Of a stretch of 64,000 nucleotides of DNA, positions 5,810 through 7,069 are shown one piece after another. Position 1 is the stretch's first letter. The number at the start of each line of letters is the position of its first letter. The stretch lies in assembly GCA_000146465.1 (NCBI GenBank), contig CP001946.1; one strand, 5' to 3'. Position numbers and translations under genes: made by a program. The notes beneath the pieces were generated by a model. The model was not told where the DNA came from, searched no databases, and was given only the letters and a program-made list of their open reading frames with translations.

Positions 5810-7069
5810 TTGATGCAGACACATTATACATTAGAGCTTGCGTCGGAAAGCCTTATGGAAAGCGAGGATAACATGAAGGAATATACAATGATTTCGGGAA
5901 TGGTTAAGAACAGATACTACACAATTTATGGAGTGATAGTAGATTGGCTGGAGTGGAAAAGATGCCGAGGAGGAGATTACATGATGACCTTGGATCTGAT
6001 TGATGAATGTATGAAAAAATTATCTGTTAAGATTTTCAGTCCAAAGAAAATATTCTCTAAAGGATTCTGTGTTGGAGAGGTTGTAAAGATAAGGAACCTA
6101 AGGATTTACGATGCATGCAGGGCGGTGACTGATCGTAGCAATGACATTGAGGTGATATTCACGCCATACGAATCTCCCAGCGATGTTATTGCTCCTTTTC
6201 CAAAGCGGCTTATGGAGTTTTTTAATCAGAACAGGGAAATTTTTGTGAAAGAAAGGAAAATATCTGAAATAGAGGAGGGAAGGTATTTTGATTTCAACGG
6301 AGAGTTGATAGACAAACAGAAGGAAAGATGCAACTTAATTCTCCTTAGATTTGTAGATTATAGCAGAAACAAGCGGGTTCAGGGCCAAGACACCACCGAG
6401 AACTATCCAAAGGACATGGTTCTGATTGTGAAAGCATGGGGATGCTTTGCCATGGAAGCCGAGAAGTGCGAAATTGGGGGATGGTATAGACTTAGGAATC
6501 TGAAGGCAGACGAAGTGGGATATCGTTTGTATGCAAGTCTGTCTGAGTCAAGCAAGGGGAGCATTTCCAACATAGGAAGAGACACGACTCTCGGGAAGTA
6601 CTTCCAAACAAAAAAGGACAAGTACATGGAAGGTTTTGCACTCCGGCAAGGAGGAATGAAGGTTCCGGATGGAATTGCAAGATACAGACTGACTGAAATT
6701 AAGGACATACTTTTGCCAGGTGTGTACCGGATTAGGGTTTGTATAAAAAGATATATGCCATCTGGAGGAATGGAAGTGTTTTTCTGCAAAACCTGTGGAT
6801 CGGAAGACAGAGGAGTAGATGGAGATTGCAAATGTAGTATTCCCGAGATAAAGAAAATCAAGGTAGTAAAATTGCTGCTCTGGGATGGGAAACAGGAGAT
6901 AATAGCTGTATGCCGAAACAAGCTTGTAGAACATATATTTATCAAGGAAAACGATGGATATCTAAGCAGAAGAATGTTTGATTGCATGATTCTGAACGTT
7001 AGGGGTGTGGAGGGAATGGTCTACCATCTTATTGATCTTGGCTTTTTTGAAGTCGAAAAGGAAGGTTGA
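5810..7069 (+). CDS. Hypothetical OB-fold protein, possibly POT1/RPA-like ssDNA-binding, with a C-terminal Cys cluster
   Basis: The N-terminal YYTIYGVIVDW...KIFSPKKIFSKGFCVGEVVKIRNLRIY resembles a Telo_bind/OB fold. A C-terminal CKTCGSEDRGVDGDCKC zinc-ribbon-like motif is present. Identity is uncertain. Confidence 0.4.
   Translation: MMQTHYTLELASESLMESEDNMKEYTMISGMVKNRYYTIYGVIVDWLEWKRCRGGDYMMTLDLIDECMKKLSVKIFSPKKIFSKGFCVGEVVKIRNLRIYDACRAVTDRSNDIEVIFTPYESPSDVIAPFPKRLMEFFNQNREIFVKERKISEIEEGRYFDFNGELIDKQKERCNLILLRFVDYSRNKRVQGQDTTENYPKDMVLIVKAWGCFAMEAEKCEIGGWYRLRNLKADEVGYRLYASLSESSKGSISNIGRDTTLGKYFQTKKDKYMEGFALRQGGMKVPDGIARYRLTEIKDILLPGVYRIRVCIKRYMPSGGMEVFFCKTCGSEDRGVDGDCKCSIPEIKKIKVVKLLLWDGKQEIIAVCRNKLVEHIFIKENDGYLSRRMFDCMILNVRGVEGMVYHLIDLGFFEVEKEG

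Follow-up and report, generated by a model that had tools for sequence, protein, structure and literature searches.

The locus considered here raises the question of which kind of single-stranded DNA (ssDNA)-binding protein, if any, is encoded at positions 5810-7069 (+) of a 64,000-nucleotide stretch of Encephalitozoon intestinalis ATCC 50506 chromosome V, hereafter called the window. A preliminary description, made from the DNA letters, had proposed a reduced OB-fold protein of POT1/TEBP/RPA type with a C-terminal Cys cluster. The OB-fold proposal was supported, sequence profiles, predicted structure and residue mapping all giving the POT1 family, and it could be narrowed: from the joint "POT1/RPA-type" class we retained POT1 specifically and dropped RPA70, for which there was no Pfam match at E ≤ 10 and a lower rank in both fold searches. 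The sharpened interpretation supported by our analysis is that of a POT1 orthologue comprising three OB folds, the third of which (OB3) bears a putative zinc ribbon. We consider it very probable that this gene is the POT1 orthologue (Pot1/TEBP-alpha family) of E. intestinalis, POT1 being the protein that caps telomeres at their G-rich single-stranded 3' overhang, and that its product carries a putative zinc-binding OB3.

The open reading frame (ORF) was found as described, with 419 uninterrupted codons and both of the peptides quoted earlier (YYTIYGVIVDW...KIRNLRIY and CKTCGSEDRGVDGDCKC) inside it. Its start at 5810 is a TTG codon picked mechanically by the ORF lister, the next ATG codons being located at 5813 and 5855. 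Translation from the ATG at 5855 yielded a 404-aa protein identical to ADM11556.1, the "uncharacterized protein Eint_051090" of NCBI; translations from 5813 or from the ATGs after 5855 had no exact match in the protein collection. The start codons of the orthologues also align with 5855, and these orthologues do not possess the 5810-5854 extension. Judging from these matches and from synteny, the true coding sequence is therefore 5855-7069 (+), that is 404 codons plus the stop, and the in-frame upstream extension at 5810-5854 (+), including TTG 5810 and ATG 5813, is probably an untranslated 5' leader. The size of 419 aa given earlier thus stands as the codon count of the ORF but not as that of the protein, and residues of the POT1 gene product are numbered below on the 404-aa protein. 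It was correct that this is far smaller than canonical POT1, the full-length human chain having 634 aa (7qxb_P), although all three OB folds are still kept. The flanking genes encoding PCNA (3960-4760, +) and the RIO kinase RIO1 (7496-8656) exactly matched the E. intestinalis ATCC 50506 proteins ADM11554.1 and ADM11558.1, respectively.

The suggestion that the protein had gone unrecognised did not hold. Eint_051090 is named [quoted passage not shown] in UniRef, and the gene was already identified as Pot1 in 2023 by Mascarenhas dos Santos et al. (PMC10158259), who reported TTAGG telomere repeats in Encephalitozoon, since their Table 1 lists Pot1 of E. intestinalis as GPK93_05g08160, together with TERT, Stn1, Ten1, a Tpz1/TPP1-like protein, Mre11 and Rad50. 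Our results strengthen this assignment and do not change it. Pot1 had no InterProScan Pfam match in that study, and its structure matches reached only TM 0.31-0.70 (PMC10158259). Mre11 is numbered GPK93_05g08450 there, 29 locus numbers past Pot1; in the window, Mre11 occupies 38429-40150 (+) and follows the POT1 gene at a distance of 24 large ORFs, and smaller genes probably fill the difference.

At the family level, the POT1 signal obtained by sequence comparison was unambiguous. The lone sequence matched Pfam POT1 (PF02765; E 1.1e-5, 25.7 bits, residues 33-98 of the 419-aa ORF) and then POT1PC (PF16686; E 2.5e-4, 21.4 bits, residues 151-198), in the expected order, and no other Pfam family, those of RPA included, was reported at E ≤ 10. 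That both scores are sub-threshold agrees with the missing InterProScan Pfam match mentioned above. The orthologues bear PF02765 in precomputed annotation, and among 50 aligned relatives 32 matched POT1 (best E 8.9e-18) and 33 matched POT1PC (best E 2.6e-13). The N-terminal POT1 OB fold (OB1) was thus recovered with family profiles, remaining sub-threshold for the lone sequence, and the tandem second ssDNA-binding OB fold (OB2), of the POT1PC type, was recovered as well. When the PDB was searched with a profile of eight close orthologues, human POT1 ranked first (E 8.8e-4). A profile of the 30 closest relatives from an exhaustive search (A3, see below) matched the human POT1 DNA-binding domain with an E-value of 5e-12, its positions 15-227 aligning continuously with residues 10-248 of human POT1 and spanning OB1 and OB2. 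The only other PDB matches of this profile at E < 0.01 were CTC1 and Schizosaccharomyces pombe Pot1, and RPA chains reached only E 0.3.

Eight orthologues, with 36-65% identity, were recovered from E. cuniculi, E. romaleae, E. hellem, Ordospora and others. Two word-indexed profile searches returned nothing past Encephalitozoon and Ordospora, except for the Logan sequence P0024 and Edhazardia; such searches reached too little, so that an exhaustive search of representatives was needed. Run with HMMER and the orthologue profile, it recovered 90 cluster representatives at E ≤ 1e-3 and 18 at E ≤ 1e-30. The named relatives were all microsporidian (Encephalitozoon, Ordospora, Hamiltosporidium, Spraguea, Nosema, Vairimorpha, Conglomerata, and Edhazardia), the one from Spraguea being annotated "Telomeric single stranded DNA binding POT1/CDC13". 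The gene order was identical in E. cuniculi GB-M1, where WD40, Cbf5, PCNA, a 243-aa protein, the POT1 gene, Rpb4, and RIO1 follow each other, and it continued 3' of RIO1 with an 87-aa ORF, Rpn5, a 167-aa protein and a RING protein. Identity to E. cuniculi was 63% for the POT1 gene product, 81% for PCNA, 86% for Cbf5 and 78% for RIO1; by this measure, the POT1 gene is among the faster-evolving genes of its neighbourhood.

The AlphaFold2 model obtained from the 30-sequence alignment (mean pLDDT 88.0, pTM 0.73) exhibited three beta-barrels with helices between them, OB1 being modelled with pLDDT >90. It superseded a run based on the eight close orthologues only (pLDDT 52.6), in which OB2 and OB3 were unusable; Foldseek applied to that earlier model already gave the POT1/TEBP/RPA ranking, with very low TM-scores. 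Prediction with AlphaFold and comparison with Foldseek, the check suggested in the preliminary description, thus revealed three OB barrels, with POT1 and TEBP-alpha ahead of RPA in both fold searches. On the + strand, OB1, the first telomeric ssDNA-binding OB fold (residues ~12-110), is encoded at 5888-6184, as indicated by PF02765, the A3 profile and the model. It is followed by a helix running from the end of OB1 into OB2 (residues 114-130; 6194-6244), by OB2 (residues ~132-243; 6248-6583), by a long helix linking OB2 to OB3 (residues 245-267; 6587-6655), and by OB3 (residues ~280-398; 6692-7048), both helices being assigned by DSSP on the AlphaFold2 model. OB3 is a C-terminal OB fold of the type that serves as binding module for TPP1, Tpz1 or TEBP-beta, and would be the docking site of a TPP1/Tpz1-like partner.

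The DNA groove could be compared residue by residue after aligning the E. intestinalis protein and the human POT1 fragment to a common profile. The profile-guided matches were F61 with human F62, Y85 with Y89, G39 with G40, D41 with D42, R38 with K39, and Y144 with Y161, so that the base-stacking aromatics of the human groove (F62, Y89, and Y161) all have a counterpart. The codons of F61 (6035-6037) and Y85 (6107-6109) lie in OB1 and that of Y144 (6284-6286) in OB2, all three on the + strand. F61 was invariant in both the 50- and the 30-sequence alignments, and its human equivalent F62 stacks on the telomeric base T1 and does not tolerate alanine in a mutational scan (PMC11960693). Human K33 and Y36 were not conserved. 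We thus show here that three OB folds are present, that OB1 and OB2 share homology with the DNA-binding domain of POT1, and that the aromatics equivalent to F62, Y89 and Y161 are conserved.

The Cys cluster at 6785-6835 (+), C311-x2-C314-x10-C325-x-C327 (CKTCGSEDRGVDGDCKC), is a putative zinc ribbon or knuckle, located in the model in an OB3 loop between the long strand 289-311 and the strand 332-343. Among the 30 relatives, C311 was conserved in 28, C314 in all 30, C325 in 16, and C327 in 26. With the eight-orthologue profile, the pattern PGVYRIR..IKRY.P....C..C aligned with residues 357-385 of human POT1, the CxxC falling on C382 and C385. The human OB3 fragment scored 9.2 bits against the OB3 profile, a value reached by 1 of 4590 composition-matched shuffles, which backs the positional equivalence of the CxxC but is weak alone. 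In human POT1, C382, C385, C503, and C506 coordinate a zinc ion between OB3 and the inserted HJRL domain (PMC5394241; PMC11960693). The two Cys pairs of E. intestinalis lie only ten residues apart (C314 to C325) and the model contains no extra domain, so there is no vertebrate-type HJRL insertion. The architecture is therefore the minimal OB1-OB2-OB3 one, as in fission-yeast Pot1 and ciliate TEBP-alpha, both of which also miss the HJRL (PMC5394241 and the S. pombe Pot1 structure paper); this insertion marks the vertebrate form and not the POT1 family. Several distant representatives scoring above the Pfam thresholds of POT1, and in most cases also above those of POT1PC, carry a C-terminal CxxC-x(10-22)-CxxC. 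Their ribbons aligned in register by hhalign (E 2.7e-6 for P0078 and 3.3e-4 for P0098, the latter also matching the POT1A-like OB3 family PF25507), and it appears from these alignments that the Cys cluster is not special to microsporidia. As far as such comparisons can tell, the Cys4 site most likely holds a structural zinc ion. In the Ordospora sequences P0007 and P0008, the third Cys is replaced (…EKQMQSCMNH…), so that CxxC…C is left, and a His is present three residues after the last Cys, which could make the zinc site of Ordospora a Cys3His one (alignment A1, columns ~356-370).

If the protein functions like other members of its family, OB1 and OB2 would together form a groove gripping roughly one to two TTAGG repeats in the 3' overhang, F61, Y85, and Y144 stacking on the single-stranded TTAGG. 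The 3' end would thereby be kept out of sight of nucleases and of the DNA-damage machinery, and the access of telomerase would be regulated. By analogy with the Pot1-Tpz1 and TEBP-alpha-beta complexes, the concave groove of OB3 could dock the TPP1/Tpz1-like candidate partner GPK93_11g20990, which is encoded outside the window and matches Pfam TPP1/ACD with an E-value of 5.9e-7 (PMC10158259 supplement). The Cys4 cluster probably holds one zinc ion that would stiffen the OB3 loop, at the position where the zinc site and the inserted HJRL are found in vertebrate POT1.

Several observations weigh against the POT1 reading. The lone sequence remained under the Pfam gathering scores for both families (25.7 versus 29 bits for POT1 and 21.4 versus 27.2 bits for POT1PC), and phmmer with the single sequence gave no match in the PDB at E ≤ 10. 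The global TM-scores were low (0.24-0.49), due to differences in relative domain orientation and in target lengths. Human K33, a phosphate contact, aligns to a Leu. The third Cys is kept in only the 16 of 30 relatives noted above, Ordospora having three Cys and possibly a nearby His as fourth ligand. Finally, we found in the literature no binding, zinc or localisation experiment on any microsporidian Pot1.

A profile restricted to OB3 matched human CTC1 OB-G (residues 1033-1090) with an E-value of 1e-4, over the four-Cys region and the next strand (IIRLLVEDGTAEAVVTCRN in CTC1 versus VVKLLLWDGKQEIIAVCRN in E. intestinalis), including the motif LLxxDGxxExxxxCRN. The same profile also matched the RING-box of RBX1 (E ~4e-3), which we rejected as noise from the Cys/"CRN" motif. 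As these spurious matches were only ~5 bits lower, the CTC1 match was re-tested by shuffling the CTC1 fragment 5000 times with its composition preserved, and it survived: the fragment scored 30.6 bits, and none of the 4833 shuffles that were scored reached this value (maximum 11.1). The zinc ribbon of CTC1 OB-G resembles those of RPA70 and of Teb1 OB-C (bioRxiv 10.1101/815886). The conserved Cys4 cluster of OB3 is thus similar, in a comparison of sequences only, to the RPA70-C-like ribbon of CTC1 OB-G, and given this ordered similarity it was reasonable to call the cluster reminiscent of RPA70 DBD-C.

OB3 is closer in sequence to CTC1 OB-G and RPA70 DBD-C than to human POT1 OB3, and Encephalitozoon has Stn1 and Ten1 while no CTC1 or Cdc13 is recognisable; for these reasons one may wonder if this minimal Pot1 is a single hybrid subunit at the chromosome end, able to dock Stn1-Ten1 as well as the TPP1-like protein. 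We regard this as very unlikely; if it were true, the RPA-like telomere cap presumed to be the ancestor of both POT1 and CTC1 would have a present-day example in this protein. It is also very unlikely, in our opinion, that the protein is the missing large subunit of CST, or doubles as one, assuming the role of CTC1/Cdc13 and docking Stn1-Ten1 via its zinc-ribbon OB3. The CTC1 match and its resistance to shuffling speak for this possibility, as do the name of the Pfam family itself (POT1/CDC13) and the published Encephalitozoon inventory, which comprises Stn1 and Ten1 but no Cdc13/CTC1 (PMC10158259). On the other hand, OB1 and OB2 are of the POT1 type at the E-value of 5e-12 already given, a TPP1/Tpz1-like partner is present in the genome, and the CTC1 match covers only ~55 residues, with the spurious RBX1 matches merely ~5 bits below. 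The Cys4-bearing C-terminal OB fold also occurs in Pfam-confirmed POT1 proteins of other organisms, and the protein, with 404 aa and three OB folds, does not have the architecture of CTC1/Cdc13 (seven OB folds in CTC1). Fission yeast combines Pot1-Tpz1 with Stn1-Ten1 and has no known large CST subunit, which likewise counts against this possibility.

Still less probable, so that we give it hardly any credit, is an RPA70-like general ssDNA-binding protein, either the RPA large subunit or a paralogue, serving replication and repair instead of the telomeres. The resemblance of the Cys cluster to the RPA70 ribbon and the presence of replication genes nearby had suggested it, but at E ≤ 10 Pfam returned neither the RPA-specific domains (Rep_fac-A_C, REPA_OB_2, and Rep-A_N) nor any other RPA family, and the relatives are POT1 by Pfam. 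The 30-sequence profile that reached human POT1 at 5e-12 reached RPA only at E 0.3, and POT1 and TEBP-alpha outranked RPA in both fold searches. Moreover, the protein has three OB folds and not the four of the N-A-B-C architecture, and its model has no helix past the last OB strand, where RPA70 takes its place in a trimeric helix bundle, a feature attributed to human RPA in the CST structure paper (bioRxiv 10.1101/815886). No RPA subunit was found among the ~50 larger window ORFs scanned (at least 150 aa minus antisense overlaps, plus Rpb4). A spurious ORF, pseudogene or non-coding region, suggested only by the TTG start that the ORF lister had picked mechanically, has practically no chance of being correct, being refuted by intact reading frames across Encephalitozoon, Ordospora, Hamiltosporidium, Spraguea, Nosema, Vairimorpha and Edhazardia, by synteny in E. 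cuniculi, and by the confident fold prediction.

No TTAGG telomere repeats were detected anywhere in the window, which therefore corresponds to a chromosome-core locus. The window had been described as enriched for replication factors, and it does contain a C-terminal fragment of a family-B DNA polymerase cut by the window start (49-918, +), PCNA, the DNA primase large subunit (28977-30218, -), Mre11 and a candidate mini-Dbf4; this enrichment has however no functional weight, as housekeeping genes lie between, the replication and repair genes being mixed with those for Cbf5, Rpb4, RIO1, proteasome subunits, a class I W/Y-type tRNA synthetase and Clp1. We rejected a functional replication-gene cluster because in E. 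cuniculi, with its identical gene order, PCNA likewise stands among the genes for Cbf5, Rpb4, RIO1 and a subunit of the proteasome lid. The co-occurrence of replication genes looks like coincidence.

Some of the neighbouring genes deserve mention. The 243-aa protein encoded directly upstream of and divergently from the POT1 gene (4842-5573, -) lacks any Pfam match, begins with a hydrophobic stretch resembling a signal peptide (MQRLPLLGVLVFAVRGLHA), and is conserved in E. cuniculi, where it is syntenic, with 61.7% identity. The 87-aa ORF in the interval between RIO1 and Rpn5 (8700-8963, +) is conserved with 66.7% identity; of two E. cuniculi assemblies compared, one annotates it as a gene, with no Pfam family on record there. 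The primase large-subunit gene overlaps by 4 nt the downstream same-strand ORF (28285-28980, -), the 230-aa product of which has no Pfam match, a case of extreme compaction. Directly 3' of Mre11, a 983-aa ORF (40691-43642, +) had no Pfam match at E ≤ 1e-3. A 177-aa protein (44741-45277, -) has the Dbf4 zinc finger as its sole Pfam match (zf-DBF, E 8.8e-17) and may, from this match, be a drastically reduced form of Dbf4, the regulatory subunit of the Cdc7 kinase. Finally, two paralogous genes for M48 (Ste24-like) peptidases (48198-49424, +, and 50053-51315, +) are located around a glutaredoxin-domain gene (49450-50040), a local duplication that is unusual for so compact a genome.

Among known systems, several were compared with the E. 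intestinalis protein. In S. pombe Pot1 (PDB 7CUH, 4HID, and 1QZG), the OB1-OB2 chain is longer (339 aa in 7cuh_A versus ~243 residues in E. intestinalis), similarity in sequence is visible only at the profile level (7cuh, E 2e-3), and the telomere repeat is degenerate, whereas it is a regular TTAGG in E. intestinalis; zinc is not mentioned in the structure paper on S. pombe Pot1, whereas the E. intestinalis OB3 has its conserved Cys4 cluster. Overall identity with human POT1 (PDB 1XJV, 8SH0, 8SOK, and 7S1O) is ~11-14%, and the Cys pairs of E. intestinalis are, as already noted, only 10 residues apart. TEBP-alpha of Sterkiella (Oxytricha) nova (PDB 2I0Q and 1OTC) likewise has three OB folds and is of comparable length (446-461 residues in PDB chains), matches over its full length in Foldseek (E 4.5e-17), and binds its partner TEBP-beta through OB3 (PMC5394241); it belongs to the ciliate lineage, its alpha-beta complex is heart-shaped, and no similarity in sequence was detected in the 30-sequence profile search of the PDB. 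Lastly, RPA70 DBD-C, CTC1 OB-G and Teb1 OB-C are each a C-terminal OB fold with a four-Cys ribbon (bioRxiv 10.1101/815886); OB3 of E. intestinalis has ordered local sequence similarity to CTC1 OB-G, its Cys spacing is C-x2-C-x10-C-x-C, and the rest of the protein is of the POT1 type, without the domain organisation of RPA or CTC1 and, in the model, without a C-terminal helix.
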